64,000 nt of DNA from an uncultured Bacilli bacterium (GTDB lineage: Bacteria > Bacillota_I > Bacilli_A > ML615J-28 > CAG-313). Below, one piece after another: positions 469 to 43,777 of this stretch. A program made the translations under genes and the position numbers. Numbering within the stretch: the first letter of the stretch is position 1; the number at the start of each line of letters is the position of its first letter. A model generated the notes under the pieces. It was given only the letters and a program-made list of their open reading frames with translations, did no database searches and was not told where the DNA came from. Location: assembly GCA_934133195.1 (NCBI GenBank), contig CAKPAZ010000002.1, positions 13,954 through 77,953 of the forward strand. Reading direction: 5' to 3'.

Positions 469-3400
469 CTATTTACGTTTTTCAAGCTTAAATTCTTCAC
501 GCTTACGGTCTATTTCATTGTTGATCTTTTCAGCATATTCAAATAGAACTTCACGAGGATTATATAAGTTATTAATTACTTGACGATAAGCATTTTCCAT
601 TTCACGGCCAGTGATATAACTACCAGCAATTTGTGGGATTTCACAAGATTGTTCCCATTGTTTCATTAGTATTTCAAGGTCATCTTTTGGCCATGCAAGA
701 GCGTTAAGAGCTTTAACGTTTGCTGTAGTATGACGAGCAGCAGAACCTAAAATTCCTTCCATCTCACGTCCAAATGATACTTGTGATTCATATGATGACC
801 ACCATTTAACGAATTCCCAAGAATCATTCATTACTTGTTCACTAGCTAAGGCAGGTTGTTTCATTACTACACAACCAGAACCTGAGGCAGTAGCAGTATG
901 ATTGATTGTACCATCAGCTTGACGAGTACCAGGAATCATGTGGAAGCTCCATTTACCTTTTAGTTCAGGAGCAAATACACTTAATGTATTATATAATTCA
1001 TAATACGCTATACCAATTGGCATTTCACCAGATCTAAAACGGTTAACAAATGATGCTGATTTAGGGAAAGAATATAATGTATAGAATTCAGTCCATTGTT
1101 CAAAAGCATCCATTGCCTCATTACTAGATAAACCAGTTTCTTTATTGTCTTTTGTGTAAAGACGTCCATTACGTTGATATAATAAAGTTACAAACACAGG
1201 GTTTAATGCTGATGCACCAGCGTCATTTACTGGTAGATAGAATTGAAGTTGATCTGTTTGTAAATCAGCAACTAAGTCTATTACATCTTCCCATGTCATT
1301 GAATCCCAGTCATAAACATCACTTAATCCTTTTTCATCCATAATGTCATCACGAACGAACATCATTAAGAATATTTGTTTTTCTGGAAGTGCATATGTTC
1401 CAGTTGTTCCATCACGTGGATCTGGAATTGTTGTATCAGTATAATATTTACTATCAAAATAGAATTGGAATTGACTTAGTGAACTTTCCATATAGAAGTT
1501 ATTTGGAATAGAATCACTATTTAAGATTTCTGAATAAGATTTTGTATCTTTTCCAGTAACACCATTAATTTCTGCATATCTTCTTACAACAGCTTCTTTA
1601 TAAGTTTCGCCATTCCATACGAAGGCAAAATCTTTATCTTTTACTACTGGTTTATACATTGTTATGAAACTACCAGTAGAATCTTTTTTAACTGTACCAT
1701 CTTCATTATAGCAGTAAGCATCTGCATAAACTATTGCACCATTAGCATCAAGTTCATAAATGAATGATGATAAGTCAAGTACGGCATTTCTTAATGCGTA
1801 GTTAACAGGTAAACTTGAATCAACGTTTAAAGCAACATCTGGACCGATTCCCGCAAGTGTTGCTTTTAACAATACATCTGCGGCGGTTAATTTTAATTCA
1901 ACGTTAATGTTTGTTTTCGGTGTAAAGTCAGTATCAATTAAGTTTCTTATTACGTTAGCTTGGTCTCGACCTTGTGTCATCCAAACTTCGATTGTACGTT
2001 GTGTATTTCCACCTTCTACAGTTTTACTGATTGATGAATAATCAATAAAGAATGATAGGAAGAATGATACAATACCATCCCAAACACCACGGAAGAAACC
2101 TTCATTTGGTTTTTGAATCTTAACATCTGGAGTATGTACCTCAATGTAATCTATCATTAATGGTAACTCTCTTAAATCGTTAAGAATTGTACCAAGTGAT
2201 GAAATGTTGTTTGAGAATGTAGTTAAACGATTAGGGATAGAACGAAGATTATCTTTTAGGAAGTCTGTTAATTGAACAACTACGCTATCGATAACACCAG
2301 TTTTATCACTCTTTGTTCCAGAAATTCTTGTAATATTATCAGAAATATCTTGAAGTTCATTACGATATTGAGCAATTAATCCATCTTCACCCGCATATTC
2401 AGGGAAACGTACATGTAATTGATAGTCACGGTTAGCATCTGGAGTAACAGTTGTATAACTAATAATTGAACGATATAAGTTATTTAATTTTGTTACAACA
2501 TCTTGAATACGACTAATTAATGATGCATATTCACCTAATGTTACTTCCATACGAATTGTATGTTTAATAGCATTTCCATCTTCATCTTTAGCTTTAAAGT
2601 AGAATAAGAAATCTCCATCTTCATTTCCTAATGTTACATTTTGCCATTTTCCACTATAAGCAAATTGAACGTCATTTAATTCATCAAATAATATTTCATC
2701 ATCAACATAAACCATACGGCTTGAGTACATTCCTCTTACCATATTTTGTTTAGCACGCATTGAAATATTATAATATCCATCTTCAGGAACAGTGAATTCC
2801 CATTCAATCCAATCTCCTAATACCTTCCAACTAGTACCACCAATCGCATTTAGATAAGTCTTAGTATATGAGAATGGTTCAGTTAAAGAACTTGAACGGT
2901 CAGTTGTTGGATAAAGAGTTGGAGAAGATTTGTATAAACTTCTTTCTGCTTCAAATCTATATGATGAATTAGTTAAATTATTATTTGGATAAGTTTTTAA
3001 TAAATCATTTAGATAATCTTTATAAACTTTTTGTTCAACAGCTGTTTCAACAGTTAACTTATATATTACAAGTGGTTCTTTTACAGCGTCAAATGTAATA
3101 TAATTTAAGCCTTCTTCAAAGTAGAATTGATATGGTTTTGTTTCATAATACATATAGTCTCTTAGGTATGTTCCTGTATATGTATGTTCTTCTACTTGTT
3201 TAGGTTTTAAGTGGTTACCTCTTGTGTCTGATTTAAATTCTCCATTTTCAAATGCATCTTCAGAATCTTTCCATACACGTGAGAAAGTTAATGCTTCAGT
3301 ACCTTCAAAAGGTGTTTCACCATTAATCTTGATACCTCTTTCAATTGATGAACTATATCCCTTAACTGTAAAATAATCTAGATAAATTGAATAGAAACCA

Positions 3401-3852
3401 GCTTTTTGAACGTTAAACGCAAGTGAAACGCTTCCGGAATCTTCTTGATAAATTAGTTTTGAATTTTTAAGTTCTTCACTAGCATTATCAACCATGTAAG
3501 GTCTTGAACCTTTATCAGTTCCTTCAGTTACTTCATAATCATATGGTCTAACACCTGATTTATCTGTATCACTATGTTCAGCATCATAGTTATCAGCGTT
3601 AGCTACTATTTCTACTCCTTGAGGATAATAATCCTCATTACCATATGTTTCTAAGTGGTGTGCTTTCTTTTCTTCTAAATATTTACTATAAGCTTCATTA
3701 CTCGAGCTACTACTCGATGTACTTCCTGTAGTTGTGGTTGTATTATCATCAGCATATACATGACTTTTTACAACGCCACTAGCATTTAAAAGAAAGTAAG
3801 ATGCACAAAGAAATACTAAGGTAAAAATACATACTTTTCTAATTTTCTTCAT
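469..3852 (-). CDS. large secreted protein: two CBM-like beta-sandwich modules fused to a C-terminal ABC-type extracellular solute-binding (family 1-like) domain
   Basis: 1127 aa ORF. N-terminal signal peptide (MKKIRKVCIFTLVFLCASYFLL) followed by a Thr/Ser linker. Two similar modules are present (..FNVQKAGFYSIYLDYFTV.. and ..WIEWEFTVPEDGYYNISMRAKQN..). The C-terminal roughly 500 aa has the look of a sugar-binding SBP (IEVWMTQGRDQANVIRNLID..., WEFVKWWSS...). RBS is GGAAGGAGA. Confidence 0.6.
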   Translation of the reverse strand: MKKIRKVCIFTLVFLCASYFLLNASGVVKSHVYADDNTTTTTGSTSSSSSSNEAYSKYLEEKKAHHLETYGNEDYYPQGVEIVANADNYDAEHSDTDKSGVRPYDYEVTEGTDKGSRPYMVDNASEELKNSKLIYQEDSGSVSLAFNVQKAGFYSIYLDYFTVKGYSSSIERGIKINGETPFEGTEALTFSRVWKDSEDAFENGEFKSDTRGNHLKPKQVEEHTYTGTYLRDYMYYETKPYQFYFEEGLNYITFDAVKEPLVIYKLTVETAVEQKVYKDYLNDLLKTYPNNNLTNSSYRFEAERSLYKSSPTLYPTTDRSSSLTEPFSYTKTYLNAIGGTSWKVLGDWIEWEFTVPEDGYYNISMRAKQNMVRGMYSSRMVYVDDEILFDELNDVQFAYSGKWQNVTLGNEDGDFLFYFKAKDEDGNAIKHTIRMEVTLGEYASLISRIQDVVTKLNNLYRSIISYTTVTPDANRDYQLHVRFPEYAGEDGLIAQYRNELQDISDNITRISGTKSDKTGVIDSVVVQLTDFLKDNLRSIPNRLTTFSNNISSLGTILNDLRELPLMIDYIEVHTPDVKIQKPNEGFFRGVWDGIVSFFLSFFIDYSSISKTVEGGNTQRTIEVWMTQGRDQANVIRNLIDTDFTPKTNINVELKLTAADVLLKATLAGIGPDVALNVDSSLPVNYALRNAVLDLSSFIYELDANGAIVYADAYCYNEDGTVKKDSTGSFITMYKPVVKDKDFAFVWNGETYKEAVVRRYAEINGVTGKDTKSYSEILNSDSIPNNFYMESSLSQFQFYFDSKYYTDTTIPDPRDGTTGTYALPEKQIFLMMFVRDDIMDEKGLSDVYDWDSMTWEDVIDLVADLQTDQLQFYLPVNDAGASALNPVFVTLLYQRNGRLYTKDNKETGLSSNEAMDAFEQWTEFYTLYSFPKSASFVNRFRSGEMPIGIAYYELYNTLSVFAPELKGKWSFHMIPGTRQADGTINHTATASGSGCVVMKQPALASEQVMNDSWEFVKWWSSYESQVSFGREMEGILGSAARHTTANVKALNALAWPKDDLEILMKQWEQSCEIPQIAGSYITGREMENAYRQVINNLYNPREVLFEYAEKINNEIDRKREEFKLEKRK

Positions 3853-3855
3853 ATT

Positions 3856-5670
3856 TTATCTCCTTCCATCTATAGCTGTCAAAATATTAATTAGCCATTT
3901 AATTCGATTACTACTAGGTATAAACCCAGCTTCAACATTTCTGATTGACCATAATTCATGATGTTTTTTAATAAAAGCATTAAGAATTAAGATGTCTTTT
4001 TCGAATACGTTGTGTTCATCATTGAAAATCACTTTTTTTAGATTGCGTTGAATATCAACTAAAGTTAAAAGTAAATTTATGCTGTTTTCAATTTCACCTT
4101 TAACTAAAGTATCTTCTGAACGGATATCTTTCATTACATCATTAAACATCGATTCTAATTGTTTTAGATTTTTATCTTCAATTAAGTTCGATTTCATTTT
4201 TTCCAAGAAGTATTTAATTTGATCTTCTTGATTTTGTGAATGTTCAGCCCATAAAATTAAACTGAACAATCTGCTACCATAATCACGGTACTCTCCTTCA
4301 AGAGTAGTGTATGTAGCAAGTTTTAAAATAGCGTTTGAAGAAATAGGACCAACTAATTTATCAAGATATGGTTTAATTATTTCTTCATTTGGAGTTGACC
4401 ATGCACATTCTGCTCCATAGATAAATCCTGGATAGCTAAATGGCAAATATTGTAAGTGACCTATGTCACCCCAATCAGTAACTAAAAGGCCAAGTCCTTG
4501 ATACTTTTTGGTTGCTTCTGAGCTATTCTTAATTGAACCAACCATATCATAGTATCTAGATGTGATGGTACTCCATGTTGAAGTTCCTGGAGCCATCATA
4601 AATTTAACATCGTGTTCCCTTAGCATTTTTCCATGTGATTCAAAATCATAATTTAAATTATAACCCCAATCAACAAAGATTAAATCTTTGGGTAAACGAT
4701 TTAACGCCTCTGGATGATGAATTAATACATCACCCCACATAAGTGGCGTTTTTTTATATTTTTTAACTACTTTATAAAGTGGTAGTAAAAAATCAATATA
4801 TACATCAGCAACTGATGTTTTTTCACATGCTTCCTTGCTTTTTCCATGGCCTAGTTCATAAGGTTCATCAAAATTCATATTAAAGTATTTGGATTTGAAA
4901 TGTGGTAGCATATCATCATACATTTTTTTTACAAGTTTAAAACTTTTAGGATTAGTTGGGTCTAAAGTACTTGAGGAGCGATGAGATCCCCATATAGTAA
5001 ATCCATCAGGGCATTCCGCAAGTTCATGATATTCTTTTTTCATGAGCCAAGCGTTCATATGTCCAAATCCATTTTGATTAGGAACAAGATCAATGTAGTT
5101 CTTTTCCGTAAACGCTTCCAATTCAAGATAATCATTAAGCGTTATATAATTTTTTTCAACCAATACATCTTTAAAACTTTGATACTCATATGAAAAGCCT
5201 TCAACATAAAGTTCTAAATGATTATATTTTAAATCAGCTAACATTTGCGTTATTTCTTTTAAAGTTTTTAATGTTGGAACTTTTGAACGGCTTATATCAA
5301 TCATTGCGCCTCTGATTTCAAGATCAGGGTAATCTTTAATTTCACAACATATAATGGATTTGTTTTCAACACATTGTTTTAAAGTTTTGATTCCATAAAA
5401 GATTCCAACATCAGTTGACGCAGTTAATGTAATTTTGTTTGGATTAACTACTACTAGGTACTCTTCTTTTTTTAGTTTTTTATTGTATATAAATTCTATA
5501 TCTATACATGATGTCTCGTTATTTAATTTTATGTCTTTAAGCTTTAAATCTTTCTTTAATGTCTCAATTAAATTTTCAGAAAATTCATTGTTTTTAACAT
5601 TTAATTCACGATTTAAATTGAATTTTCCTGAGGTTGTTTGGAAAGACTTGGGGGTAGGAATTATATACAT
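3856..5670 (-). CDS. GH20-like beta-N-acetylhexosaminidase family protein (no signal peptide)
   Basis: 604 aa. The block DYPDLEIRGAMIDISRSKVPTLKTLKEITQMLADLKYNHLELYVEG is typical of the GH20 TIM-barrel start. A later block, FNMNFDEPYELGHG, has an acidic D-E pair. The canonical HLTDDQG variant is absent, so the subfamily is uncertain. Confidence 0.6.
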   Translation of the reverse strand: MYIIPTPKSFQTTSGKFNLNRELNVKNNEFSENLIETLKKDLKLKDIKLNNETSCIDIEFIYNKKLKKEEYLVVVNPNKITLTASTDVGIFYGIKTLKQCVENKSIICCEIKDYPDLEIRGAMIDISRSKVPTLKTLKEITQMLADLKYNHLELYVEGFSYEYQSFKDVLVEKNYITLNDYLELEAFTEKNYIDLVPNQNGFGHMNAWLMKKEYHELAECPDGFTIWGSHRSSSTLDPTNPKSFKLVKKMYDDMLPHFKSKYFNMNFDEPYELGHGKSKEACEKTSVADVYIDFLLPLYKVVKKYKKTPLMWGDVLIHHPEALNRLPKDLIFVDWGYNLNYDFESHGKMLREHDVKFMMAPGTSTWSTITSRYYDMVGSIKNSSEATKKYQGLGLLVTDWGDIGHLQYLPFSYPGFIYGAECAWSTPNEEIIKPYLDKLVGPISSNAILKLATYTTLEGEYRDYGSRLFSLILWAEHSQNQEDQIKYFLEKMKSNLIEDKNLKQLESMFNDVMKDIRSEDTLVKGEIENSINLLLTLVDIQRNLKKVIFNDEHNVFEKDILILNAFIKKHHELWSIRNVEAGFIPSSNRIKWLINILTAIDGRR

Positions 5671-5720
5671 ATTTTGCCATCTCCTTAAGGTTTGCGCTTT
5701 TTTCCCAATTTACTTAACTT

Positions 5721-5749
5721 ATTATATCAAAGTAAGCGTTTTTATTCAA
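5721..5749 (-). promoter_or_regulatory. sigma-A type promoter for the GH20-like gene (-35 TTGAAT, 17 nt spacer, extended -10 TGATATAAT), with a cre-like element in the spacer
   Basis: The minus strand reads cTTGAATaaaaacgcttactttgaTATAAT. The -10 is the complement of 5721-5726 and the -35 is the complement of 5744-5749. The spacer contains TAAAAACGCTTACT, which has 2 outer mismatches to the cre consensus TGWAANCGNTNWCA. Confidence 0.55.
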
Positions 5750-5794
5750 GTGATAAACTTAAAAAAAACGAAATTAGCAGAAATTGTCATTAAA

Positions 5795-5828
5795 AGCAGA
5801 AAAAAGCACCCCCAAAAGGATGCTTTTT
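5795..5828 (-). terminator. rho-independent terminator after the 416 aa GHL10 gene
   Basis: The minus strand reads AAAAAGCATCC-TTTT-GGGGGTGC followed by TTTTTTCTGCTTTT. Confidence 0.7.
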
Positions 5829-5830
5829 GT

Positions 5831-7081
5831 TTATTTCCATAATTTCTTAATGGTGTCTAACGCTTCGTCTTTTATCTCATTTTGACCTTTTACAAGATCA
5901 TGATAAGTAAAGAAAATTGTACCAGCAATATTATTAAAATTACAATTAAATCTTAATTGATTTTCAATTTCATTTGGATTTTGCCATACTTCATTAGAGC
6001 CCATTTGATATAATCCCATACCAATATAAAGAGTAGTATGTGTTTCATTACAAATATCACTCCACCATTTTGTTAAATCATGATAAGTAACATCTTTTCT
6101 TTCAAATGGGAAATATACTTGAGGTACTACATAGTCTATCCAGTTTTCCTTCATCCAAAGGTAAACATCGGAATAAAGTTCACTATAGCATTGTAATGCA
6201 CCTGCAGCATTGTATGAACCCCTTTCCCATCCACCTTCAATAATAGCAGAATTTGTACGATAGATTGCGAAAGGACTAATACCAAATAAAACTTTTTTAT
6301 TATTTTTGCTAAACGAATTTTTCAATCCATCATGAATGCTTTTAATCATTTTGTTTACATTCATTCTTCTAAAATCATCAAAGCATTGTGATTCATCTAA
6401 ACGATATTTTAAATAATCTTCTTGTTCTCTTTCTTCTGGTATCTTTGCATATGGATAGAAGTAATCATCGATATGAACTCCTTCTACATCATAATTATCA
6501 ACTACTTCCATAATTGTTTTAGTAACAAAATCAATTACTTCAGGATGACTTGGAGAAAGAATTATTTTGTTTGCACCATCTAAAATAGTATGTTCAGGAT
6601 GTAGTCTTGCAAAGTTATTTGGTGCAAGAGTTTCTAAATATTCTTCTTTTGTCATGTTTAATTGATCTAATGAAGCTTGTGATACTCTATATGGATTCAT
6701 CCAAGCATGTACTTTAATATCATGTTTTTTAGCTTCATCGATTACATATTTTAAAACATCAAAACCAGGATCTTTACCTTCTTCTCCAGTTATATATCTA
6801 GACCATGGATTTAATTTTGATGGATAGAAAGCATCATTGTTAGGACGAACTTGGAAAATGATTGTATTAATATTATAACTTGCAATATTTTCAATCATCT
6901 TTGTTAAGTATGCTTTATATTCATTTTCAGGCAAACCTTTAGGTACATCAATATTGGCTACTGTAGATACCCATACACCTCTTACACTTTGTTTATTAAA
7001 TTTGTATTCAGGAATTTCTACTACTTCATCAGAATTCCAATAATGTACATATTCATCACTACGATATTTATTTAATTTCAT
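5831..7081 (-). CDS. GHL10 (glycosyl hydrolase-like 10 / DUF187) family protein, cytoplasmic form
   Basis: 416 aa with no signal peptide. The motif block VRGVWVSTVANIDVP...NINTIIFQVRPNNDAFYPSKLNPWSRYITG...HAWMNPYR...GVHIDDYFYP is shared with the two upstream paralogues. Confidence 0.75.
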   Translation of the reverse strand: MKLNKYRSDEYVHYWNSDEVVEIPEYKFNKQSVRGVWVSTVANIDVPKGLPENEYKAYLTKMIENIASYNINTIIFQVRPNNDAFYPSKLNPWSRYITGEEGKDPGFDVLKYVIDEAKKHDIKVHAWMNPYRVSQASLDQLNMTKEEYLETLAPNNFARLHPEHTILDGANKIILSPSHPEVIDFVTKTIMEVVDNYDVEGVHIDDYFYPYAKIPEEREQEDYLKYRLDESQCFDDFRRMNVNKMIKSIHDGLKNSFSKNNKKVLFGISPFAIYRTNSAIIEGGWERGSYNAAGALQCYSELYSDVYLWMKENWIDYVVPQVYFPFERKDVTYHDLTKWWSDICNETHTTLYIGMGLYQMGSNEVWQNPNEIENQLRFNCNFNNIAGTIFFTYHDLVKGQNEIKDEALDTIKKLWK

Positions 7082-7083
7082 AT

Positions 7084-9591
7084 TTAGTCTCTCTTTCTTA
7101 AAATAAATAAAGCACCAGCAATAATTGTTATACCAGTAAGTACTAGTTCAACGTTTTTCTTACAGTTACAACCACTAGGTTTAGTTGGAACTTCAGGCTC
7201 TGGTTCAGGGTCTGGATCATCATCACCTGGTTCATCTGGTTTTACTTCTTTAGTAATATTAAAGGTGTTAGATATTACTTCAACTTGATTATCATTATCA
7301 CTTACCACAAGTTTAAATTTGCAATTTGCTTGAGGAATGATTGTCGAATAATCAAATGTAAATTCTCCTGGTTTAATTTTTCCTTCTTCTAGTAGTTCAT
7401 ATTCACCATTATCTACAGAAATATATAATTTATAATTTAAATTTGTTTGTTCATCATCCGTAATTGTCGCTTTAAAATGTTGTACCTTCTTAGTGTTAAA
7501 ATCATCAATCTTTGGTAGTGTAACTATAGGTGGTGCACTCTTGATAGATATTGGTGAATTTACTTCAACAGTATCAATAATATCTTTTACTATTACTATT
7601 ATTTTTCCATTATTAGTAGAAAAACGTGGAGCTTTAAATGTTGTGTGATATTCTTTTGTTGTTATTTTTTCATTACTTACAATTTCTATTCCATATGAAG
7701 CACCATTTGAAGAATAGATGATTGTTAAATAATAATAGTCACTATCATCATCGTCGATTGTTACATCAATTATAATATCTTCATCATATAAAAATTGAGT
7801 TTTGTTAACTTTTAAATCTACATTTGGACGATTGTTTTCTAATACTAACCATTCAACATCTTCATAGATTGAGTTATCTTGATCAAATGTAACAAGAGCA
7901 TATACTTTATTTTCTTGTTTAGTAAATGTTAATTCTTTGTTAGGGTTAATCTCTAAGGCTCTAATTTTTGATGGATCAAAATCATTAAGATTTGAAGTTT
8001 GTTCATCAAATTCATATATACCATAGCCCTTAGCTTTATCTACTTTATTTACTTTGATTGATACTTCATTTTCTTTAATCGAAATATTTTTAGGAGTTGC
8101 TTTTTCAGTTACTTTTTTGTCATATGTATAAGCTCCATAAAGTGGTGTTAACGCATTATATTTCCATGCGTGTTTTGCGACAGTTGACATTGCAAGACCA
8201 CCATCACGAGTAAGTAGGCTTGAATAACTGAAGATAAAGTATCCTTCTACTTTTTCAAGATGAGCAGAATTATAAGTTACTTGATAATACATTTCAGTTA
8301 GGCCATAGCCCCATGATTCTTTTACTTGATATAGAGCAGTACCCATATATAGTTTAGTTTTACTATCTTTTAAAGCATTACTCCACCATTTAGCGATATC
8401 ATCATAATCACCTTTTAAATGAGTATAATTTTGAGGAGTTATATAATCAATCCATTCTTCTTTAGCCCATTTTAGTGTATCAGCAAACAAGTCTGAGTAA
8501 GAATAGTAATTATTACAACTACCTAACATTCCTCCTTCTGCACCTCTTTGTGGTTCGCTTGAACAAGCCTCAACAGTTGGTGCCCAGCGTGATGCAGGAC
8601 TTATACCAAAGGCACACTTAACGTCTTTTGTTTTATTTTTTTCTCTAACCGCGTCACTTATTTGTTTAATTAATTTATTTACATTTTCACGACGCCAGTC
8701 ATATATATTAAGAGGATCAGTAGTTTCACTTACATATTGTTTATAATCTGCCATGTCTACCCATGGTTCTGTAGAGAAAGTATATCCTTTGTAAGCTGTA
8801 TTGCTTCCAATATATGATGCATCATTTGGATAAAAATAGTCATCAAAATGAATTCCATCAATATCATAATTTTCAACAATTTCCATTATTGTATTTGTTA
8901 CATGGTTTCTTACTTTTTCTGAAGCAGGATTTAAAACAAATAAATCTTCTGCACCAAGTACAACATTATGATGAAGTTCATCACCTGTTTCAAACACTGG
9001 ATTATCGATGCCTTCTGCTTGTTCTTTTTTTCTACCAAAATAAGTATCTTTAAAGTTATTTAATTCAGTAACATCGATATCTTTGATTTTTTCAATTCCA
9101 GTTGCAGGATCCTTTACCATCATAGATGTAGTTGAACCAGTTGATGCTCGATATGGGTTAAGCCATGCATGATATTCAAGGCCTCTATTATGAGTTACTT
9201 CAATCATCCATTCAAGGGGATCCCAACCAGGATCAACACCATATCCAGCTAGATATTCACTCCATGGATTATATTTAGATGGATAAAATGCATCATTAGC
9301 AGGTCTTACTTGAAACACAATTGTGTTAAAATGATTAGCTTCAGCGTTATCTAATATTTTAATATACTCATTTTTCCATGATGCGATAGCAGCTTCATCT
9401 GTACCTAGTTGACGATCAATGTTAAGATTTCCAACCGTTGCAACCCATACAGCTCTCATATCTGTTGATACTTGAGTATAGGGTACAAACTTGCCATCCC
9501 ATGCTGCTTTTGATACAGTTGTACAAATTAGCAGACAAAAGGACATTAAGCATATTCCCATAAGGGCTAGTTTTTTACATAATTTCTTCAT
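7084..9591 (-). CDS. surface-anchored GHL10 family glycosidase with Ig-like repeats and a C-terminal GCNCKK-TM-RKRD tail
   Basis: 835 aa. Signal peptide MKKLCKKLALMGICLMSFCLLICT. GHL10 block MRAVWVATVGNLNI...FNTIVFQVRPANDAFYPSKYNPWSEY...HAWLNPYR...GIHFDDYFYP. The C-terminal half looks like beta-sandwich repeats, followed by the linker DEPGDDDPDPEPEPEVPTKPS and then GCNCKK, a hydrophobic helix and RKRD. Confidence 0.75.
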   Translation of the reverse strand: MKKLCKKLALMGICLMSFCLLICTTVSKAAWDGKFVPYTQVSTDMRAVWVATVGNLNIDRQLGTDEAAIASWKNEYIKILDNAEANHFNTIVFQVRPANDAFYPSKYNPWSEYLAGYGVDPGWDPLEWMIEVTHNRGLEYHAWLNPYRASTGSTTSMMVKDPATGIEKIKDIDVTELNNFKDTYFGRKKEQAEGIDNPVFETGDELHHNVVLGAEDLFVLNPASEKVRNHVTNTIMEIVENYDIDGIHFDDYFYPNDASYIGSNTAYKGYTFSTEPWVDMADYKQYVSETTDPLNIYDWRRENVNKLIKQISDAVREKNKTKDVKCAFGISPASRWAPTVEACSSEPQRGAEGGMLGSCNNYYSYSDLFADTLKWAKEEWIDYITPQNYTHLKGDYDDIAKWWSNALKDSKTKLYMGTALYQVKESWGYGLTEMYYQVTYNSAHLEKVEGYFIFSYSSLLTRDGGLAMSTVAKHAWKYNALTPLYGAYTYDKKVTEKATPKNISIKENEVSIKVNKVDKAKGYGIYEFDEQTSNLNDFDPSKIRALEINPNKELTFTKQENKVYALVTFDQDNSIYEDVEWLVLENNRPNVDLKVNKTQFLYDEDIIIDVTIDDDDSDYYYLTIIYSSNGASYGIEIVSNEKITTKEYHTTFKAPRFSTNNGKIIVIVKDIIDTVEVNSPISIKSAPPIVTLPKIDDFNTKKVQHFKATITDDEQTNLNYKLYISVDNGEYELLEEGKIKPGEFTFDYSTIIPQANCKFKLVVSDNDNQVEVISNTFNITKEVKPDEPGDDDPDPEPEPEVPTKPSGCNCKKNVELVLTGITIIAGALFILRKRD

Positions 9592-10474
9592 TAACTTTTA
9601 TTCCTTTCTTATATCTTAAAAAATTGTTATAAGCTATTCCTTCAATTTCTTCTTTTGTTAAGTTTCTTTTCATTAATTCTTGTATTAGATTTTGAGCATC
9701 CATGTGACCTCTTAAATCATCTAAGTTGGCGTTATGATCATCATAACTCTTTAGGAAGTCCATAATGTCAAGTCCAAGCATAACATGGTCAATACCTATT
9801 TTTTCACCTAGATAAATGATTTGATCAGCAAGGCCCATAGTATTTTGTCGACTTGGATCTTTTGAAACAAAGTTTCTTGCAGAAACGGCTCCAACATATC
9901 CTCCTACTTCTCTCATTAATCTAAGTTGATCATCATTTAGGTTTCTACGGTGATCACTTAAAGTATATGCATTAGAATGACTTGCGATAATATTATGAGG
10001 CATATAGTCTAAAACATCGTAAAAACTCTTTATATTTAAGTGTGAAACATCAATGACCATATGGTGTTTATACATATAATCTAGAAATTCTTTTCCAAGG
10101 GATGTTAATCCACGATCTTTGTCTCCAGCAACCCCTGTTGCGAGATGATTTTCTTCATTCCAAGTAAGCGTAGCATGTCTTACGCCAAAATTATACATTT
10201 CATTTAAATCATCTAATGTATGAACATTACGGAGGCCTTCTAATCCAAGTAATACATTATAATTATCTTTATATGGTTTAAATGCCTCGTATGCTATTTT
10301 ATAGGCTTCAAGTACATTAAAGTCATATTCACTATATACTACCCAAATTCCACCTTTGATTTCTCCTTGTTCCATGGCTTCTAGATGATATTTTCGAAAA
10401 GGATCTTTAATGCCTTCTAAAGTTCTTTCATACAAATTTGAAAAAACATCACTATGTGTATCATATATTTTCAT
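9575..10474 (-). CDS. membrane dipeptidase family protein (peptidase M19)
   Basis: Motifs seen: DTHSDV at the N-terminus, HATLTWNEENHLATG, VIDVSHLN and ASHSNA. I prefer the second ATG (10474) because the spacing from AAGGAG is better. The track ORF starts at 10480. Confidence 0.75.
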   Translation of the reverse strand: MKIYDTHSDVFSNLYERTLEGIKDPFRKYHLEAMEQGEIKGGIWVVYSEYDFNVLEAYKIAYEAFKPYKDNYNVLLGLEGLRNVHTLDDLNEMYNFGVRHATLTWNEENHLATGVAGDKDRGLTSLGKEFLDYMYKHHMVIDVSHLNIKSFYDVLDYMPHNIIASHSNAYTLSDHRRNLNDDQLRLMREVGGYVGAVSARNFVSKDPSRQNTMGLADQIIYLGEKIGIDHVMLGLDIMDFLKSYDDHNANLDDLRGHMDAQNLIQELMKRNLTKEEIEGIAYNNFLRYKKGIKVNEEIM

Positions 10475-10514
10475 TTTCATTCTCCTTTTTTAATCTTTAC
10501 ATTATATCGACTTA

Positions 10515-10543
10515 ATTATATAATATTTTCTTTAAAATAGCAA
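10515..10543 (-). promoter_or_regulatory. sigma-A type promoter upstream of the M19 dipeptidase gene (-35 TTGCTA, 17 nt, -10 TATAAT)
   Basis: The minus strand reads TTGCTAttttaaagaaaatattaTATAAT. It lies just downstream of the terminator at 10551-10580. Confidence 0.5.
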
Positions 10544-10550
10544 ATATTTT

Positions 10551-10580
10551 AGAAATAAAAGGGCTAATATCTTAGCCCTC
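10551..10580 (-). terminator. rho-independent terminator after the 979 aa GHL10 gene
   Basis: The minus strand reads GGGCTAA-GATA-TTAGCCC followed by TTTTATTTCT. Confidence 0.75.
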
Positions 10581-10587
10581 TAAATTA

Positions 10588-13527
10588 TTATTTTCTTTTT
10601 CTAATTACAAACACAAAACATGTTAATGCAATCATTAAAGTAGCAACTTCAAGTATTGATTTTTTACAGTTGCAACCTTTTTTATCTTCATCTATAGGAT
10701 CATCTGGAACAGGAGTAGGGGTAGGATCATCTGGTTCTACTTCTTTTTTTACAACAACTAAATCACTATCTAAATATTCAGTAATACCATTGTTGTCGAT
10801 TATTACTCTTACTTTAAGTGATGTATCATTTTCACTGATTTTATACATTGTTCCAATATAATTATTTTCAACAATTCCTTCATCTAAAAGTTTAATAATG
10901 TTATTATCATTATCAAGAAGTAATAGTTTATAATTATATCCATTTATTCCATAAGTAGAAATATTAATAATTATGTTTTTACCAATAGGTGGATTATAAT
11001 CAGTAATTTTAATATTTGTATTATCTAAATAATTAGTTCTAATTACTTTAAATGTGTTTGATGTATAGGTTGTTGAATAATCTCCTTGTGTAAGTTTTAG
11101 AACAAAATGATATGTTCCTTCACTAAGTTTAATATCATCAAAGTTAGCAACTATACTTCCATTTAAAGTTCCTTTTTTAACTTCTTTTGTAACATAGTTT
11201 GCTTCATTGACAGCAATCAATACATAATCATAATCTAAGTCATTTGTACTATTTATATTTACCGGTATTGAAAGTGGAGTTTTGTAACTAAATCTTGTTT
11301 GGATTTTTGTAAAATCTTTAACATTTAGTTTGGTATAATCACTTACGGTATTGAATTTATTTGTAAAGACACTAATTGAGGCAGTGCCATCAGTAATGGT
11401 TATTTTTAGTTGTGAGTTTGATGTTGTGTAAGGGTATGCTTTATATGGTATTTCAAAAGTATTTGAAGTAATATTACCACTCGCGATTACTCTTTTCTTA
11501 TCAATATCATTTTCAAAATAATTTATTGTGTATTTTAAATTATGATTAGTTAAATTTGAAATATTAAGTCTTAAGTTTATTGTTTCATTACATATGATTT
11601 CTGTTGGAAGTTGTGATAGATAATTAATTTTAATCGATTCATATTCTTCCATATTAGTAAAATCTAGTTTGGTTGAAAGTGATGAAACATAACCATTTGT
11701 TGATACTACTTTTATATAATAATCATAATTTTCATCATAATCATAAATTCTTAGTGTTGCTTTTTCTCCTTCTACATATGGATCATAAATAACACTAATA
11801 CGAGATTCAACACTTGCGTTAAATTCAGTTCCTTTTAATACTTTATATATACCATACACTCTTGATGATGGCATTTTATCAAAAGTAATATTTACACTAT
11901 TATCAAGAGTATCTTTTGATAATTTGTAATCTTTTACGACTAAGCCTTCAGAATCATCATTACCACGTTGAATTGGATAAACAGGATTTTTTGTCCAATT
12001 AACCTTTAGGAATGATATTCCTTGTTCATGAGTTTCGCTTGAGAAAACATAGAGATTTTCATATGAATATAATGCAGATCCTTTAATAACTGGATATTTT
12101 TTATTATATACAATTTGATTTCTGATTTCTGAAGGATTGTAAAATTGTGATGGAGCATCTCGGTATTTATATATTCCATGTGCAACATACAATTTAATTG
12201 CTTTCTTTCCCTCACTAGCACGTACTTCATTTAATTCTGTTACCATCTTTGCCCACCAATCAACGATGTCAGCATACGCAGCAACATTATCTTCAAATGC
12301 ATAATAAACTTGAGGAGCAACATAATCAACTAATCCTTCTTCTACCCATTTCCATGTGTCAGCAAAAAGATCGGAGTATGATGAATAAGCACCTGATGCG
12401 GTATTAGAACCAATTGGTGAACAACGATCAACACTTTCAGTACAATATTCAGAATTACTACGCCATACAGCAGCAGGTTTTGATCCAAATTCAACTATTT
12501 TATTATTTGTTTCATTATATTCATCAACCATAGCACGAATTCTACGCATCATTACATTAATGTTTTCTCTTCTAAAATCACCTAGTGAATATCCTCTTTC
12601 CATATGAGCATACTTAGGATCATTATTTAAGTATTCTTGATAATTTCCTAAATCATTTAGGGTATTTACTCCTGATAGAGAACTATCATATTTTTCTCCA
12701 CCAGCAAAGTTAGTATTAACTTTATCACTTGATACAGAACCATTTAAATAGAAGTAATCATCAAAATGCATACCATCAATATCGTAGTTTTCAATGATTT
12801 CTTTTAGGGTTGCGACAATAAAATCTTGTACCGCTATTTCACTTGGATTTAAAATTAATCTTGTATCATGTTCTCCCATAACAACATATTCAGGATGTAA
12901 TCTTGCAAAATTGTTAGGTGCAAGTTTTTCTATTGCTTTTTCTTTAAATTTTAAGAGTTCAGCATTACTGTATGTACTTGCGTTCTTGTTCGCATTATCA
13001 AGAACACTATATGTTGTTACACGATAGGCATTCATCCAACATTGGAAATCAAAGCCTCTTTTATGAGTTTCTTCAATCATCCATTCAAGAGGATCCCATC
13101 CTGGGTCAACTCCAGCACCAACTAAGAATTCACTCCATGGATTTAATTCAGATTTATAAAAAGCATCATTACTTGGTCTTATTTGAAAGAATAAAGTATT
13201 CATTCCGAATTCTTCCATTCTATCAAGAATGGTTAAGAATTCCTTTTTATAACTATTAATAGCTTCTTCATCTAATCCATTTTGTTTACCAATTGCAATG
13301 TTGTAAACTGTAGCAACCCATACTCCACGCATTTCTGATTCATATACTGAAAATTTCTTAGGTAGAGTTACTGGTTCACCTGTACCATAATGATATATTT
13401 TTGATGTGGGTCCACTTTTATTCGAATATAGGAAATCTTCATCATCACTTTTACTATTTACAATATTAGAGAATGATAAGGTTGCAAGTAGTAAAAGGCT
13501 TAAAAATATACTTATTATTTTCTTCAT
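10588..13527 (-). CDS. surface-anchored GHL10 family glycosidase with Ig-like repeats and a C-terminal GCNCKK-TM-RKRK tail
   Basis: 979 aa. Signal peptide MKKIISIFLSLLLLATLSFS. GHL10 block MRGVWVATVYNIAI...MNTLFFQIRPSNDAFYKSELNPWSEF...QCWMNAYR...GMHFDDYFY. A long beta-rich repeat region follows, then the linker EVEPDDPTPTPVPDDPIDEDKK, GCNCKK, a TM helix and RKRK. The start overlaps the PIG-L stop (TAATG). Confidence 0.75.
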   Translation of the reverse strand: MKKIISIFLSLLLLATLSFSNIVNSKSDDEDFLYSNKSGPTSKIYHYGTGEPVTLPKKFSVYESEMRGVWVATVYNIAIGKQNGLDEEAINSYKKEFLTILDRMEEFGMNTLFFQIRPSNDAFYKSELNPWSEFLVGAGVDPGWDPLEWMIEETHKRGFDFQCWMNAYRVTTYSVLDNANKNASTYSNAELLKFKEKAIEKLAPNNFARLHPEYVVMGEHDTRLILNPSEIAVQDFIVATLKEIIENYDIDGMHFDDYFYLNGSVSSDKVNTNFAGGEKYDSSLSGVNTLNDLGNYQEYLNNDPKYAHMERGYSLGDFRRENINVMMRRIRAMVDEYNETNNKIVEFGSKPAAVWRSNSEYCTESVDRCSPIGSNTASGAYSSYSDLFADTWKWVEEGLVDYVAPQVYYAFEDNVAAYADIVDWWAKMVTELNEVRASEGKKAIKLYVAHGIYKYRDAPSQFYNPSEIRNQIVYNKKYPVIKGSALYSYENLYVFSSETHEQGISFLKVNWTKNPVYPIQRGNDDSEGLVVKDYKLSKDTLDNSVNITFDKMPSSRVYGIYKVLKGTEFNASVESRISVIYDPYVEGEKATLRIYDYDENYDYYIKVVSTNGYVSSLSTKLDFTNMEEYESIKINYLSQLPTEIICNETINLRLNISNLTNHNLKYTINYFENDIDKKRVIASGNITSNTFEIPYKAYPYTTSNSQLKITITDGTASISVFTNKFNTVSDYTKLNVKDFTKIQTRFSYKTPLSIPVNINSTNDLDYDYVLIAVNEANYVTKEVKKGTLNGSIVANFDDIKLSEGTYHFVLKLTQGDYSTTYTSNTFKVIRTNYLDNTNIKITDYNPPIGKNIIINISTYGINGYNYKLLLLDNDNNIIKLLDEGIVENNYIGTMYKISENDTSLKVRVIIDNNGITEYLDSDLVVVKKEVEPDDPTPTPVPDDPIDEDKKGCNCKKSILEVATLMIALTCFVFVIRKRK

Positions 13528-14210
13528 TATAGTTCATCCTTAAATATCTTTTTTTGTCTGTCAAGCACAGCAAAACATTCAGCATAGCCTTTTTTCATTA
13601 AAGCACCACGGCAGCGAGCAAGTGATGTATAATAATCAAAATATTTAAAGTCACTGCTATTCATAATAAACCAGTGAGTTTGAATAGCTTCTTTCCATAG
13701 TTCAAAACCTTCTGTAATATCGACATAAACATATGGTGTAAAGTTATCTGAGTCTTCCCAGTTTTCACAAAAATAAAGTGGAGCGTAAAATCTTTCACCA
13801 TTTTTATTTCCAACTACACCTGCTCTAAATTGAGCTTCTTGAACAATTAGATGAGTGTTGTTATGATCACGATGCATTGTACTTTGCCAATGTGTTACGA
13901 TTACATTTGGTTTGTATTTAACAATTACATCGACAACTTGATTAATTACTTCATCATTATTTGGAAGTTCACCATCTGCATATTTTAAGACAATTGCTTC
14001 ACCATTCACCATTTTCGCAAACTTATTTGCTTCATCAATTTTTTGTTTGCGATATTCTTGGATTGTCATATGTGGAGGATTTCCTCTTTCACCTGCAGTT
14101 AGTGCCATTATTATGTTTTTTCCACCTCTTACTGCGTTTGTGGCCATAATACCACCAGCAGTAAGTTCCATATCACCAATGTGACCACCGATTGCTAAAA
14201 TAGTTTTCAT
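13527..14210 (-). CDS. PIG-L / LmbE family N-acetyl-sugar deacetylase
   Basis: 227 aa. ILAIGGHIGDMELTAGG corresponds to the AHPDD.E.G.GG motif, and HRDHNNTH is the second metal-binding motif. Confidence 0.7.
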   Translation of the reverse strand: MKTILAIGGHIGDMELTAGGIMATNAVRGGKNIIMALTAGERGNPPHMTIQEYRKQKIDEANKFAKMVNGEAIVLKYADGELPNNDEVINQVVDVIVKYKPNVIVTHWQSTMHRDHNNTHLIVQEAQFRAGVVGNKNGERFYAPLYFCENWEDSDNFTPYVYVDITEGFELWKEAIQTHWFIMNSSDFKYFDYYTSLARCRGALMKKGYAECFAVLDRQKKIFKDEL

Positions 14211-14226
14211 TGTATTTTCCCTTTCT

Positions 14227-15303
14227 TTATTTTTTTAATTCATCAAGATTTGCGATTATAAAGTTAGCAAGTCTTGCTCTTGCATCCATATGTAAGATAT
14301 TCTTACGAGTTGGATGAACACGATTTGAAAGTAGAACAAAAGCTACTTCATTCTTTCTATCTACCCAGATGTTAGTTCCGGTAAAGCCTGTATGAAGGAT
14401 GGTTTCACTGCTTGTTAGTTCTCCTGCAGATGAGGCAGGGCCTTTATTAACAAAACCGATTGATCTTCTTTCTGGTACTAATGATACACCATTTCTTTCT
14501 TCTACTTGTGGTGTAAACAATAAATCAATTGTTGCCTTTGATAAGAAGTGTTCATTATTAAATACTCCATCATTTAAAAGCATTTGTAAATAATTAGCCA
14601 TATCTTTTACTGTAGAAAACAAACCAGCATGACCTGCTACACCACCTAAAGCATAAGATGTCTCATCATGAACTTTTCCACGAACAATTCCTTTATATAC
14701 GGGATCATCACGATATTCTGTAGGAGCACATCTTAGTGGAGATTCAGGAAGATAGCCTGTATCTTTCATATTTAGTTTATCAAAAATTTCCTCTTTAACA
14801 AATTCATTTAAAGGTTTCTTTACGATACTTTCTATTACCTTTCCAAGGATAATATAACCTAAATCTGAATAATGAATTTTAGTTCCTGTTTCGTATTTTA
14901 ATTCAATATTTAATATCCTATTCCATACTTCAGTTGGATCATTCAAAGTGTTTGCGCGAGGTAATCCCTCAGGTAATCCTGAAGTATGAGTCATCAAATT
15001 CCATATTGAAATATTATCAAATCTGAATTCAGGAAGATATCTTTTTACTGGTGCATATAGACGAAGTTTTCCTTTTTCAATTAATCTTAATACAGCTGTT
15101 GTAGTACTAACAATTTTTGTTAATGATGCCATATCATAGATTGTATCAATATCATTTTCTTCAACATTTGGAATTAAACTTTTCTTTCCAAATGAACCGA
15201 ATAATACTTTATCTTTAAAAACTATTGCATAGTTTGCACCTGGGAATGCTCCTTCATTGATTGCGTCTTGTAAAAGATTGTTAAATTCTTGGATTTTTGA
15301 CAT
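14227..15303 (-). CDS. serine hydrolase, beta-lactamase / DD-peptidase (SxxK) family
   Basis: 358 aa. It has the SxxK motif (MASLTKIVSTT) and the overall class C / penicillin-binding-like layout. The start codon lies 12 nt after the tyrS stop and has its own AAAGGAG. Confidence 0.7.
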   Translation of the reverse strand: MSKIQEFNNLLQDAINEGAFPGANYAIVFKDKVLFGSFGKKSLIPNVEENDIDTIYDMASLTKIVSTTTAVLRLIEKGKLRLYAPVKRYLPEFRFDNISIWNLMTHTSGLPEGLPRANTLNDPTEVWNRILNIELKYETGTKIHYSDLGYIILGKVIESIVKKPLNEFVKEEIFDKLNMKDTGYLPESPLRCAPTEYRDDPVYKGIVRGKVHDETSYALGGVAGHAGLFSTVKDMANYLQMLLNDGVFNNEHFLSKATIDLLFTPQVEERNGVSLVPERRSIGFVNKGPASSAGELTSSETILHTGFTGTNIWVDRKNEVAFVLLSNRVHPTRKNILHMDARARLANFIIANLDELKK

Positions 15304-15315
15304 TTTATACTCCTT

Positions 15316-16548
15316 TTATTTATGAATAATTAGATAATAATTTTTCTTTCCTCTTCTGATTACTGTATAAGTTTCACCTATAGCATTAGCTTTTGTGATT
15401 ACAAAGTTTAAATCTTTGTTTTGAACACCATTAACTAGTGTTGCTCCATTATTAATAAAGTCACGAGCTTCACGTTTACTTGATGCGGCTTTTACTGCAA
15501 CTAAAGCATCAATTAAATTAAGGTCTTCTTCAACTGTTATAGATGGAACACCGTTAAATAATGTTTCAATTTCTTCTTTTGTTAATTTAGATATATCACC
15601 ACTGAATAAAGCTTCTGATAGTTTTACAGCTTGGTTGTAAGCTTCTTCGCCATGTACCATAGTTGTCATTTCTTTAGCAAGAGCCTTTTGGGCAGCACGT
15701 TTATGTGGTTCTTCCATGAAGCTCTTTTCTAATTCTTCAATTTGTTCTTTAGTTAGGAATGTGAATTGTTTTAATTCTCTTATAACGTCACTATCTGGAG
15801 TGTTAATCCAAAATTGATAGAATGCATAAGGAGAAGTTTTTTCTGGATCAAGCCAAATTGCTCCCCCTTCACTCTTTCCAAATTTAGTTCCATCACTCTT
15901 TGTGAAAAGAGGAATAGTAATACCATATGCTTCTGTGTCAGCACCATGGATTTTTCTTATTAATTCAAGTCCACCTGTAATATTACCCCATTGATCTTGA
16001 CCACCGATTTGAAGAATACAATTTTTAGTATCTAGTAAATGTTCAAAATCTAATGCTTGTAAAATTTGATATGAGAATTCAGTATATGAAATACCACTAT
16101 CAAGTCTTGCTTTTACTGTTTCTTTGTTAATCATATAACTAACATTAAAGAATTTACCATATTTTCTTAAGAATGTTAATATATCAATATCATGAGTCCA
16201 ATCATAGTTGTTTACCATTTCACATTTAAACAAATTAGAAACTTGTTTATATAAACATTTAGCATTATGTTCAATTATTTCATTTGATAATAATTGTCTT
16301 TCGCTACTAGGTTTTGGATCACCGATAAATCCTGTTGCACCACCAATTAAGAAAATAGGTTTATTTCCAACACTTTCTAAACGCTTTGCGAAAAGAAAGA
16401 CAAGCATATGTCCAACGTGTAGACTATCGCCAGTTGGGTCAGTACCTAAATAAAAAGTAACTTCACCTTTATTGATTTTATCAATAATTTTTTCATCTGT
16501 AACATTGTGGATTAATCCACGCCATTGTAATTCTTCAAATAAATTCAT
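15316..16548 (-). CDS. tyrS: tyrosine--tRNA ligase
   Basis: Motifs seen: MNLFEELQWRGLI..., HVGH (class I HIGH) and KFGKS (KMSKS). The track ORF extends 30 codons upstream into the T-box terminator. I start at the ATG with GAGGAAAA upstream. Confidence 0.9.
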   Translation of the reverse strand: MNLFEELQWRGLIHNVTDEKIIDKINKGEVTFYLGTDPTGDSLHVGHMLVFLFAKRLESVGNKPIFLIGGATGFIGDPKPSSERQLLSNEIIEHNAKCLYKQVSNLFKCEMVNNYDWTHDIDILTFLRKYGKFFNVSYMINKETVKARLDSGISYTEFSYQILQALDFEHLLDTKNCILQIGGQDQWGNITGGLELIRKIHGADTEAYGITIPLFTKSDGTKFGKSEGGAIWLDPEKTSPYAFYQFWINTPDSDVIRELKQFTFLTKEQIEELEKSFMEEPHKRAAQKALAKEMTTMVHGEEAYNQAVKLSEALFSGDISKLTKEEIETLFNGVPSITVEEDLNLIDALVAVKAASSKREARDFINNGATLVNGVQNKDLNFVITKANAIGETYTVIRRGKKNYYLIIHK

Positions 16549-16770
16549 TTTGTTTTCCTCTTTCTTTTTTTTAATAAAATAAAAGTCCCCTAAAGAAATG
16601 CTTAAAAAAGCAATCTTTAAAGGACGATAACAATGCATATTGCATTATTCCCGCGGTACCACCTTCATTCAAGAATATATCTTGCACTTTGTTGATAGGG
16701 AATGTATGTAATTCATAAAATAAACTTGTCTACTTTTCCACCGACCAAGTAGTTCTCTATGTGCCATTTA
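16549..16770 (-). promoter_or_regulatory. T-box leader (tRNA-Tyr sensing) with terminator/antiterminator
   Basis: The minus strand carries the T-box core GGTGGTACCGCG (complement of 16652-16663). A terminator hairpin GTCCTTTAAAG...CTTTAGGGGAC (16585-16625) follows, then TTTTATTTTATT. Upstream there is an AGAGA motif and a candidate specifier, GAAU-UAC-A (UAC is the complement of 16708-16710). Confidence 0.8.
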
Positions 16771-16778
16771 TTTTACTA

Positions 16779-17810: not shown

Positions 17811-17889
17811 AAAGCACCTCATTTAATTATTTTTTCATTTACATTATACCATATTTCGATTTTTATTGCAATAAAAAAATGAAAATTTT

Positions 17890-20600: not shown

Positions 20601-20602
20601 TG

Positions 20603-33201: not shown

Positions 33202-33233
33202 GCCGGATAAATTATCCGACATTTTTTCTTTTT
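33202..33233. terminator. weak hairpin plus T-run between convergent cvfB and the M6 protease gene
   Basis: CGGAT-AAATT-ATCCG followed by ACATTTTTTCTTTTT on the plus strand. The stem is short. Confidence 0.4.
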
Positions 33234-43647: not shown

Positions 43648-43777
43648 ATTAATCACCCAATACATTTTACCATATTTGTTTAATTTAATAAATTAATTTG
43701 TATTTATAAATTTGGGTAAAGGCATAGACAAAAATGTAAAACGTTCATATTATATAATAACTAAAGGAGGGGAGTTT

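Follow-up and report, generated by a model that had tools for sequence, protein, structure and literature searches.

Surface display of the Gram-positive type is usually explained by sortase and its LPXTG signal, by N-terminal lipoproteins or by wall-binding repeats. Mollicutes-related gut orders have been reported to be sortase-less, which was read as 'reduced surface protein expression' (PMC10868615). The stretch of DNA studied here (64,000 nucleotides of contig CAKPAZ010000002.1 from an uncultured Bacilli bacterium, hereafter the window) raises the question of how two secreted proteins of the GHL10 family, here called A and B, are held at the cell, and whether the tail that they share at their C-terminal ends, which an earlier note on this DNA had proposed as an unrecognised sorting or anchoring signal, is more than a plain membrane anchor. 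The analysis showed that the tail is a module that exists in its own right, is under selection, is common to three unrelated families of secreted enzymes, and carries a signature whose subtype is specific to the genome.

The two genes, their signal peptides and the parts of the two tails are given below; tail coordinates were taken on the reverse complement, both genes lying on the minus strand (the plus strand of these ranges yields no sensible protein), and the ranges of the earlier note take in the stop codons.

7084..9591, minus strand: gene of GHL10 protein A, 835 amino acids (aa), from the list of open reading frames (ORFs); Pfam PF02638, E=5e-55
9502..9591, minus strand: Sec-type signal peptide region of protein A, MKKLCKKLALMGICLMSFCLLICTTVSKAA, judged by inspection of the translation
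7174..7242, minus strand: acidic, Pro-rich stalk of tail A, KPDEPGDDDPDPEPEPEVPTKPS
7156..7173, minus strand: signature GCNCKK of tail A, its second Cys 22 residues ahead of the basic cluster
7099..7155, minus strand: hydrophobic segment of tail A, NVE followed by a 16-residue uncharged core, LVLTGITIIAGALFIL
7087..7098, minus strand: basic cluster RKRD of tail A (stop codon 7084-7086)
10588..13527, minus strand: gene of GHL10 protein B, 979 aa, a deep paralogue of A; PF02638, E=2.5e-47
13438..13527, minus strand: Sec-type signal peptide region of protein B, MKKIISIFLSLLLLATLSFSNIVNSKSDDE, judged by inspection
10678..10743, minus strand: acidic, Pro-rich stalk of tail B, EVEPDDPTPTPVPDDPIDEDKK
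10660..10677, minus strand: signature GCNCKK of tail B
10603..10659, minus strand: hydrophobic segment of tail B, SILE followed by a 15-residue uncharged core, VATLMIALTCFVFVI
10591..10602, minus strand: basic cluster RKRK of tail B (stop codon 10588-10590)

Translation of the minus strand bore out the layout that the earlier note had read in both proteins, namely a stalk, the hexapeptide GCNCKK, a hydrophobic stretch and a basic end, and also its observation that hexapeptide, helix length and basic tail are kept, GCNCKK being identical and the spacing from KK to RK being 19 residues in tail A and tail B alike; LPXTG is found in neither protein, as had been stated. Both proteins match PF02638 with scores (187 bits for A and 162 bits for B) well over the gathering cut-off of 27.9, and protein A runs from the signal peptide through the GHL10 catalytic domain and a beta-rich C-terminal half to the tail. 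No lipobox is present in A or B, which have ordinary signal peptides and carry their tether at the C-terminal end instead. Among the ORFs of the window the tail is present on just these two.

The simplest account of a shared hexapeptide would be an evolutionary relic, that is, a sequence left by recent duplication or gene conversion of neighbouring GHL10 genes and without a function of its own, and the two genes do lie 1 kb apart in an operon-like cluster. The two paralogues are, however, only ~35% identical in the catalytic domain, the residues flanking the hexapeptide in the two tails are unrelated, and the hexapeptide codons (GGT TGT AAC TGT AAG AAA versus GGT TGC AAC TGT AAA AAA) show synonymous differences only. 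Because an identical hexapeptide stands in such surroundings, chance and recent gene conversion were excluded as its source, and the wider occurrence of the tail bears on the same point.

To describe that occurrence, we used the best 120 homologues of the 835 aa protein, which extend down to ~34% identity and have varied repeat modules. Nearly all of these GHL10 homologues end in a Cys signature, a hydrophobic stretch and (L/I)-R-K-(K/R), and in 112 of 118 tails the nearest signature Cys stands 21-24 residues ahead of the basic cluster, most often 23; about 115 of the 118 complete tails have a Cys at such a distance from a terminal R-K-K/R. The Cys is missing only in the most distant homologues, e.g. 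P0108 of Haloplasma contractile, which has a Cys-free helix at the same place. Both extracellular GHL10 paralogues retain the tail in every related genome examined, and the locus is syntenic.

The earlier note had also proposed that a profile of the tail be built and searched, and when this was done the matches were C-terminal and most of them fell on enzymes other than GHL10. Profile A3, made from 93 GHL10 tails only and 34 positions long, was run over 1.84 billion cluster representatives with no word index and gave 72 matches at E<=1e-3 (35-53 bits). These lie at the extreme C-terminus (0-2 residues from the end) except for P0121, a false match with no tail, and P0127, which has a 12-residue extension past the tail; the full-length carriers begin with signal-peptide-like N-termini. 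With the last 40 residues removed, most full-length A3 matches resemble not GHL10 but a 750 aa protein of locus L127, and these carriers are NAGPA phosphodiester glycosidases (Pfam PF09992). NAGPA carriers occur in tandem pairs with tails on both members, located between an ABC-F ATPase gene and comEA/comEC (L130-L133, at 7622-12274 in L130; also L139). Two further carriers combine Metallophos with purple-acid-phosphatase-N (PF00149+PF16656), and L140 supplied a third metallophosphoesterase orthologue, 52% identical to P0187 and with the same tail; the repeats ahead of the tail are Big_2 in L140 versus Flg_new in P0187, while the tail is constant. The metallophosphoesterase carriers adjoin rplT/rpmI (L129, L140).

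The tail is thus found on several unrelated families (GHL10, NAGPA and Metallophos/PAP-like), two of them within one metagenome-assembled genome (MAG), JAZSNL01 ('Bacilli bacterium'), which has KKGCKKK on a GHL10 protein (L006) and on a NAGPA protein (L127). A genome scan with the KKGCKKK sub-alignment matched 149 stretches, of which one was confirmed by tblastn (the NAGPA protein of L127), and the metagenome pattern KGCKKSSAEL gave 2 matches, both true tails. As a control of specificity, the best E-value of the tail hidden Markov model (HMM) among 6,392 ORFs of 1.07 Mb of DNA that had been chosen for a K-G-C-K-K...R-K-K pattern was 0.8. In viral contigs the bare degenerate DNA pattern K-G-C-K-K...R-K-K/R gave at least 120 chance matches, with no real tail among the matches listed. 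Word-indexed searches with the tail only were not useful for a census: the two-sequence alignment A2 gave 4 candidates, none of which scored, and the 96-sequence alignment A6 gave 8 short fragments.

These results settle the question of a relic. The idea of the earlier note would have fallen with a motif confined to two recent paralogues, and this is not what was found, as the tail spans the GHL10 subfamily and unrelated enzymes. Recent duplication or gene conversion was rejected on the divergence of the paralogues, the codon differences and the wide GHL10 and non-GHL10 occurrence; with both paralogues tailed in every related genome examined and the tail on unrelated families in other contigs, we give a functionless relic a negligible probability.

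The anatomy of the tail was described on 183 non-redundant tails, with positions numbered backwards from the residue that opens the terminal basic cluster. The stalk is rich in Pro, Glu and Thr. Lys flanks stand at -26, -25, -21 and -20, and between them the Cys at -23 is the most informative column, with 3.8 bits. Its context is G-C in 79 tails and C-G in 37; two Cys occur in 49 of the 183, C-x-C being found in 35 (the window's included) and C-x-x-C in 12. Ser follows at -19, and Glu stands at -17 in 31%. The uncharged core has a modal length of 16 residues, with small residues (S/T/A/G) at -13, -10 and -7 in 68%, 69% and 92%, and the helix ends at -3 to -1 in L/I/V/F/M in 97-98% before the basic cluster R, K, K/R. 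The motif named in the earlier note therefore needs to be redrawn, GCNCKK being one genome-specific subtype of a broader signature, which is a near-invariant Cys ~23 residues ahead of R-K-K/R, mostly with Lys flanks (KKGCKK, KKCGKK, GCxCKK) and in certain genomes with Ser/Gly flanks. In a generic anchor one would not expect a Cys at a constant position, so short a core and small residues striped along one side to be kept over three unrelated families; the stripe suggests packing against another membrane helix.

The subtypes found on pairs of carriers of the same genome were as follows.

Window: GCNCKK on both carriers
L002: KGCSKCNK and KNCKSCKNK
L134: GSNCNMG and GSQCNMG
L135: SPCPTG and NSCNFG
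L005: SGGCKMGSG and PKGCQTGTC
JAZSNL01: KKGCKKK on the GHL10 and on the NAGPA protein
L130: KKKCGKK and EKKCGKK on two NAGPA paralogues

Signature similarity was scored as the best 9-residue match, with equal register shifts allowed in each comparison. The within-genome mean was 32.6 in comparison to 17.0 +/- 2.65 (maximum 24.7) between genomes, and in the derangement test the observed similarity was reached by none of 1,854 derangements. The protein bodies show the opposite trend, with 42% identity between paralogues and 59% between orthologues, and the helix cores show no clear within-genome excess of similarity. Since the within-genome similarity of the signatures exceeds all derangements while the bodies run the opposite way and the cores do not co-vary, the signature is selected in concert within each genome. 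This co-variation is what co-evolution with a recognition partner encoded by the genome would predict, and it argues for such a partner.

In general, the analysis suggested that the tail is probably a lineage-specific anchoring or sorting signal recognised by a partner. In the mechanism that we propose, hydrolases exported by Sec (GHL10, NAGPA and PAP-like metallophosphoesterases) would be tethered by the tail to the outer face of the cytoplasmic membrane in a host group of low-GC, Anaeroplasma-like Bacilli. Sec export would be followed by stop-transfer insertion in the N-out/C-in sense, which would put the Cys immediately beyond the outer face of the membrane and R-K-K on the inner side, and a genome-encoded membrane partner would then recognise signature and helix together. 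This partner would most likely be an enzyme that processes the tail, by Cys modification and/or by a cut next to the Cys, in analogy with the CPBP/Rce1-type myxosortases, and the product of cleavage would keep a lipidated Cys next to a polybasic patch as its remaining anchor. For MYXO-CTERM, Cys-dependent cleavage by a CPBP protease has been shown (PMC11980579; bioRxiv 10.1101/2023.06.07.544157), and MYXO-, JDVT-, Synerg- and CGP-CTERM are all predicted substrates of CPBP/Rce1-type intramembrane proteases (bioRxiv 10.1101/2023.06.07.544157; PMC11980579). That the tail is processed, by Cys modification and/or cleavage, is on this analogy a serious possibility, though one that falls short of likely. 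More tentatively still, the tails could represent a fifth Cys-based C-terminal sorting system, with no earlier example from monoderm Mollicutes-related Bacillota. In the sortase-poor, Anaeroplasma-like hosts a membrane enzyme would read the Lys-flanked Cys signature and the stripe, lipidate the Cys and/or clip off the helix and co-evolve with the signature, so that a lipid-plus-polybasic anchor would display wall-degrading enzymes. Of what the earlier note had suggested, the idea of an unrecognised sorting or anchoring signal gains from the breadth, the architecture and the within-genome co-variation, while the dedicated enzyme and the cleavage, lipidation or cross-link that it raised stay conjectural.

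Several points weigh against this proposal. The main rival to a recognition partner is interaction among the tails of the carriers themselves, which would yield the same genome-specific pattern of signatures. No CPBP (PF02517), rhomboid, sortase or exosortase-like candidate was found in the window by Pfam and NCBIfam on the ORFs and motif inspection of the membrane ORFs, and no candidate processing enzyme within 10 kb of the tail-bearing genes in the Pfam tables of ~14 related loci. Where there is no outer membrane, a stop-transfer helix by itself is enough to tether a protein at the surface, and processing is not required. The Lys-flanked subtypes, the window's included, have no counterpart among the four described Cys-containing signals, and the hosts were placed taxonomically from a few source names and the GC content.

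Two membrane proteins may be mentioned beside the search for an enzyme. At 62578-63375 (minus strand) the window encodes a multi-pass membrane protein of 265 aa that matches nothing in Pfam or NCBIfam and lacks the catalytic motifs of CPBP and rhomboid proteins. At 1237-2954 of L006, upstream of the locus and in this one MAG only, a TMEM164-like protein (PF14808) is encoded together with a second unannotated membrane protein. Relatives of TMEM164 are acyltransferases, and the TMEM164-like protein of L006 may be regarded as a long-shot lead for a Cys-modifying enzyme.

An alternative is that the tail is a plain, unprocessed type-I stop-transfer anchor without a sorting enzyme, in which the Lys-flanked Cys would be a juxtamembrane feature with a local role; this role might lie in contact with anionic lipid head groups, in S-acylation, or in joining tail-bearing enzymes into homo- or hetero-oligomers through a disulfide or a metal. 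A hydrophobic helix and a positive cluster suffice for anchoring, the Cys-free helix of P0108 indicates that a bare anchor works for the GHL10 family, and no processing enzyme was seen near any carrier gene or in the window. Packing of tail against tail would also give both the within-genome co-variation and the small-residue stripe, and the two Cys (CxC or CxxC) of 49 tails are compatible with metal or disulfide bridging. Against these stands a Cys distance that is fixed in ~97% of tails over three unrelated families, far stronger than the usual juxtamembrane conservation, and the short uncharged core, often initiated by Glu, would barely suffice as a permanent anchor. The hosts are probably anaerobic gut organisms, judging from sample sources and the Anaeroplasma-like assignment, and organisms of this kind seldom have disulfides outside the cytoplasm; as to S-acylation, we know of no bacterial extracytoplasmic system of such a type. 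On balance a plain anchor appears rather unlikely to us, and a sorting or anchoring signal read by a partner remains the reading that we prefer.

The host and the surroundings of the two genes give this signal a context. Carrier DNA has a GC content of 28-34% throughout, and the source names on cluster members are Anaeroplasma bactoclasticum and 'Bacilli bacterium'. The two GHL10 genes belong to a gene cluster at 469-19152 (minus strand), syntenic in L001-L006 and L134-L137, whose order is MurC-like ligase, LacI regulator, TyrRS, beta-lactamase-like protein, PIG-L deacetylase, surface GHL10, M19 dipeptidase, surface GHL10, cytoplasmic GHL10 (416 aa), GH20 hexosaminidase, and an ABC importer of a giant 1127 aa solute-binding protein, which has no family match, and two permeases. 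Cwp19, a protein of the GHL10 family, has been reported to act as a lytic transglycosylase on peptidoglycan (PMC6016235), and a dependence on scavenged muropeptides has been predicted in several such lineages (PMC10868615); in keeping with both, the cluster looks like a locus for scavenging peptidoglycan or muropeptides. Gene A stops one base away from the start codon of the GHL10 gene that follows (7081). Gene B, in contrast, has directly downstream of it, at ~10555-10587 (minus strand), a GC-rich inverted repeat (agagggctaa...ttagccct) and then a T-run, which resemble an intrinsic terminator separating it from the M19 dipeptidase gene.

Beside this locus, 19641-21328 (minus strand) holds an AbiEii-type nucleotidyltransferase toxin (PF08843) and then a 241 aa ORF without family match, probably a type IV toxin-antitoxin pair that has been inserted there. 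Further along the window, at 24565-32118 and 33232-36207 (minus strand), two very large N-terminal lipoproteins of 2517 aa and 991 aa are predicted, the latter with an M6 metalloprotease domain just under the cut-off and a nuclease-like segment; if these predictions hold, the same organism therefore also anchors other surface enzymes by a lipobox. At 43697-43924 (plus strand) lies a small Cys-rich membrane ORF ending in NCCQPVNTGCCNTGCGTGGYGYALILVLFILLVIIGTARW, and its match to TIGR01732, the model of YjcZ-family sporulation proteins (E=3.7e-9), suggests that this reduced lineage has kept sporulation genes. A wall-less host was rejected because the window encodes both the MurC-like ligase and this YjcZ sporulation protein. 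At 59839-61805 (minus strand), a DUF6320 membrane protein with an N-terminal zinc-ribbon-like CxxC...CxxC overlaps a 423 aa ORF that has no Pfam or NCBIfam match.

If a dedicated Cys-containing C-terminal signal on secreted hydrolases is real, it would revise the picture of 'reduced surface protein expression', and the Cys/CPBP sorting paradigm would reach beyond diderm bacteria and archaea. A domain that can be captured in an HMM would mark the surface enzymes of largely uncultured gut bacteria for annotators, and its genome-specific subtypes offer a way to trace the cognate partner through co-variation. The carriers, which cleave peptidoglycan and phosphodiesters and are found in muropeptide-scavenging loci, hint at how reduced bacteria feed on the walls of others. 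Were the tail only a plain anchor, it would still be a useful, previously uncatalogued domain, of modest interest.

How the tails relate to known sorting signals was assessed by comparison with Pfam and NCBIfam (release 20, June 2026). No model of either collection covers the tails of any carrier family, and every existing C-terminal model was rejected on this ground. The sub-threshold HMM matches are almost all to C-terminal sorting models: Heimdall-CTERM 14, Loki-CTERM 11, LPXTG anchor 10, NPXTG 6, MYXO-related families ~13, JDVT-CTERM 4 and PEF-CTERM 3. The tails share with the LPXTG signal of sortase A the position, the helix-plus-basic-cluster layout, the Pro-rich stalk and the purpose of surface display in monoderms, and differ from it in having a Cys with Lys flanks in place of the pentapeptide. 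They might accordingly be degenerate forms of a known non-Cys signal, substrates of a divergent LPXTG sortase or of an exosortase or rhombosortase, and LPXTG_anchor (TIGR01167) indeed gives borderline matches to ~10-12 tails and Gram_pos_anchor (PF00746) weak matches to 4. The TIGR01167 matches, however, span profile positions 9-31 only, which are the helix and basic cluster and not the LPXTG motif, and besides the two window proteins LPxTG is missing from the last 60 residues of all 231 collected proteins; an LPXTG variant was rejected on the absence of the pentapeptide. GlyGly-CTERM gave zero tail matches and PEP-CTERM matched 1-2 tails at E>=0.2. Moreover, srtA/B are reported missing from the uncultured related orders RFN20 and ML615J-28 (PMC10868615). 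We regard a substrate of this kind as highly improbable.

The likeness is greater to the signals that contain a Cys. MYXO-CTERM with MrtX of the CPBP family is, like the tails here, tripartite, with an invariant Cys, a helix, a basic cluster and many unrelated secreted carriers, and a second Cys is frequent in both (GCGC in MYXO-CTERM and GCxC here, the window tails having C-N-C). MYXO-CTERM is nevertheless restricted to Myxococcota, which are diderm and use type II secretion system (T2SS) export, and it has no Lys flanks and an Arg-rich tail, whereas the tails here have low-GC Bacilli or Mollicutes-like hosts, an R-K-K cluster and no CPBP partner identified; the model TIGR03382 stayed short of its cut-off, with one of 93 tails at E=0.045 and one of 96 at E=0.21. 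Synerg-CTERM with MrtS has a Ser/Gly cluster that ends in a single invariant Cys, to which the Lys-free subtypes here, GSQGGGSNC (L134), SSSGGC (P0111) and PSTGGC (P0116), are similar. That signal is found in Synergistales only, is T2SS-linked and has an invariant Pro in a Leu-rich helix, while most tails here, the window's included, are Lys-flanked and have no helix Pro and no model match, the window tails moreover having two Cys; TIGR04564 matched 2 of 93 tails weakly (best E=1.1e-4).

JDVT-CTERM with MrtJ and CGP-CTERM with MrtA are likewise Cys-containing tripartite signals and predicted substrates of glutamic-type intramembrane proteases. JDVT-CTERM (NF033191, 4 weak matches) differs by a nearly invariant D-P ahead of the helix and by a protease gene adjoining its substrate; the tails here have no D-P column and no adjacent protease gene. 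The C-G of the KKCGKK subtype recalls the C-G-P of CGP-CTERM (TIGR04288, one weak match, E=0.41), which is archaeal (Thermococcales) and has an invariant G-P after the Cys that is absent here, KKCGKK having Lys where CGP has Pro.

Two further systems are instructive. The N-terminal lipoproteins of the GHL10 family (YddW/YngK, UPF0748) have the same enzyme and a membrane tether, but at the other end of the protein, and some tail-bearing members are labelled 'uncharacterized lipoprotein YddW' in the source records. In eukaryotes, the CAAX box with a polybasic region, as in K-Ras4B, which is the substrate type of Rce1, places a Cys beside a Lys-rich patch near the mature C-terminus, and the protease family to which the myxosortases belong has Rce1 as its founding member. 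The CAAX Cys differs in being cytosolic, four residues from the C-terminus and prenylated, whereas for the Cys of the tail a position outside the cytoplasm is predicted, and a transmembrane helix comes after it. The terms Firmicutes, Bacillota, Mollicutes and Erysipelotrich are absent from the Haft preprint (bioRxiv 10.1101/2023.06.07.544157), and a search of the literature for this kind of signal in Acholeplasma, Anaeroplasma or Mycoplasmatota/Mollicutes-related lineages turned up no description. Taken together, the comparison suggests that the tail is a real and apparently undescribed Cys-containing tripartite C-terminal domain, with MYXO-, Synerg-, JDVT- and CGP-CTERM as its closest kin.

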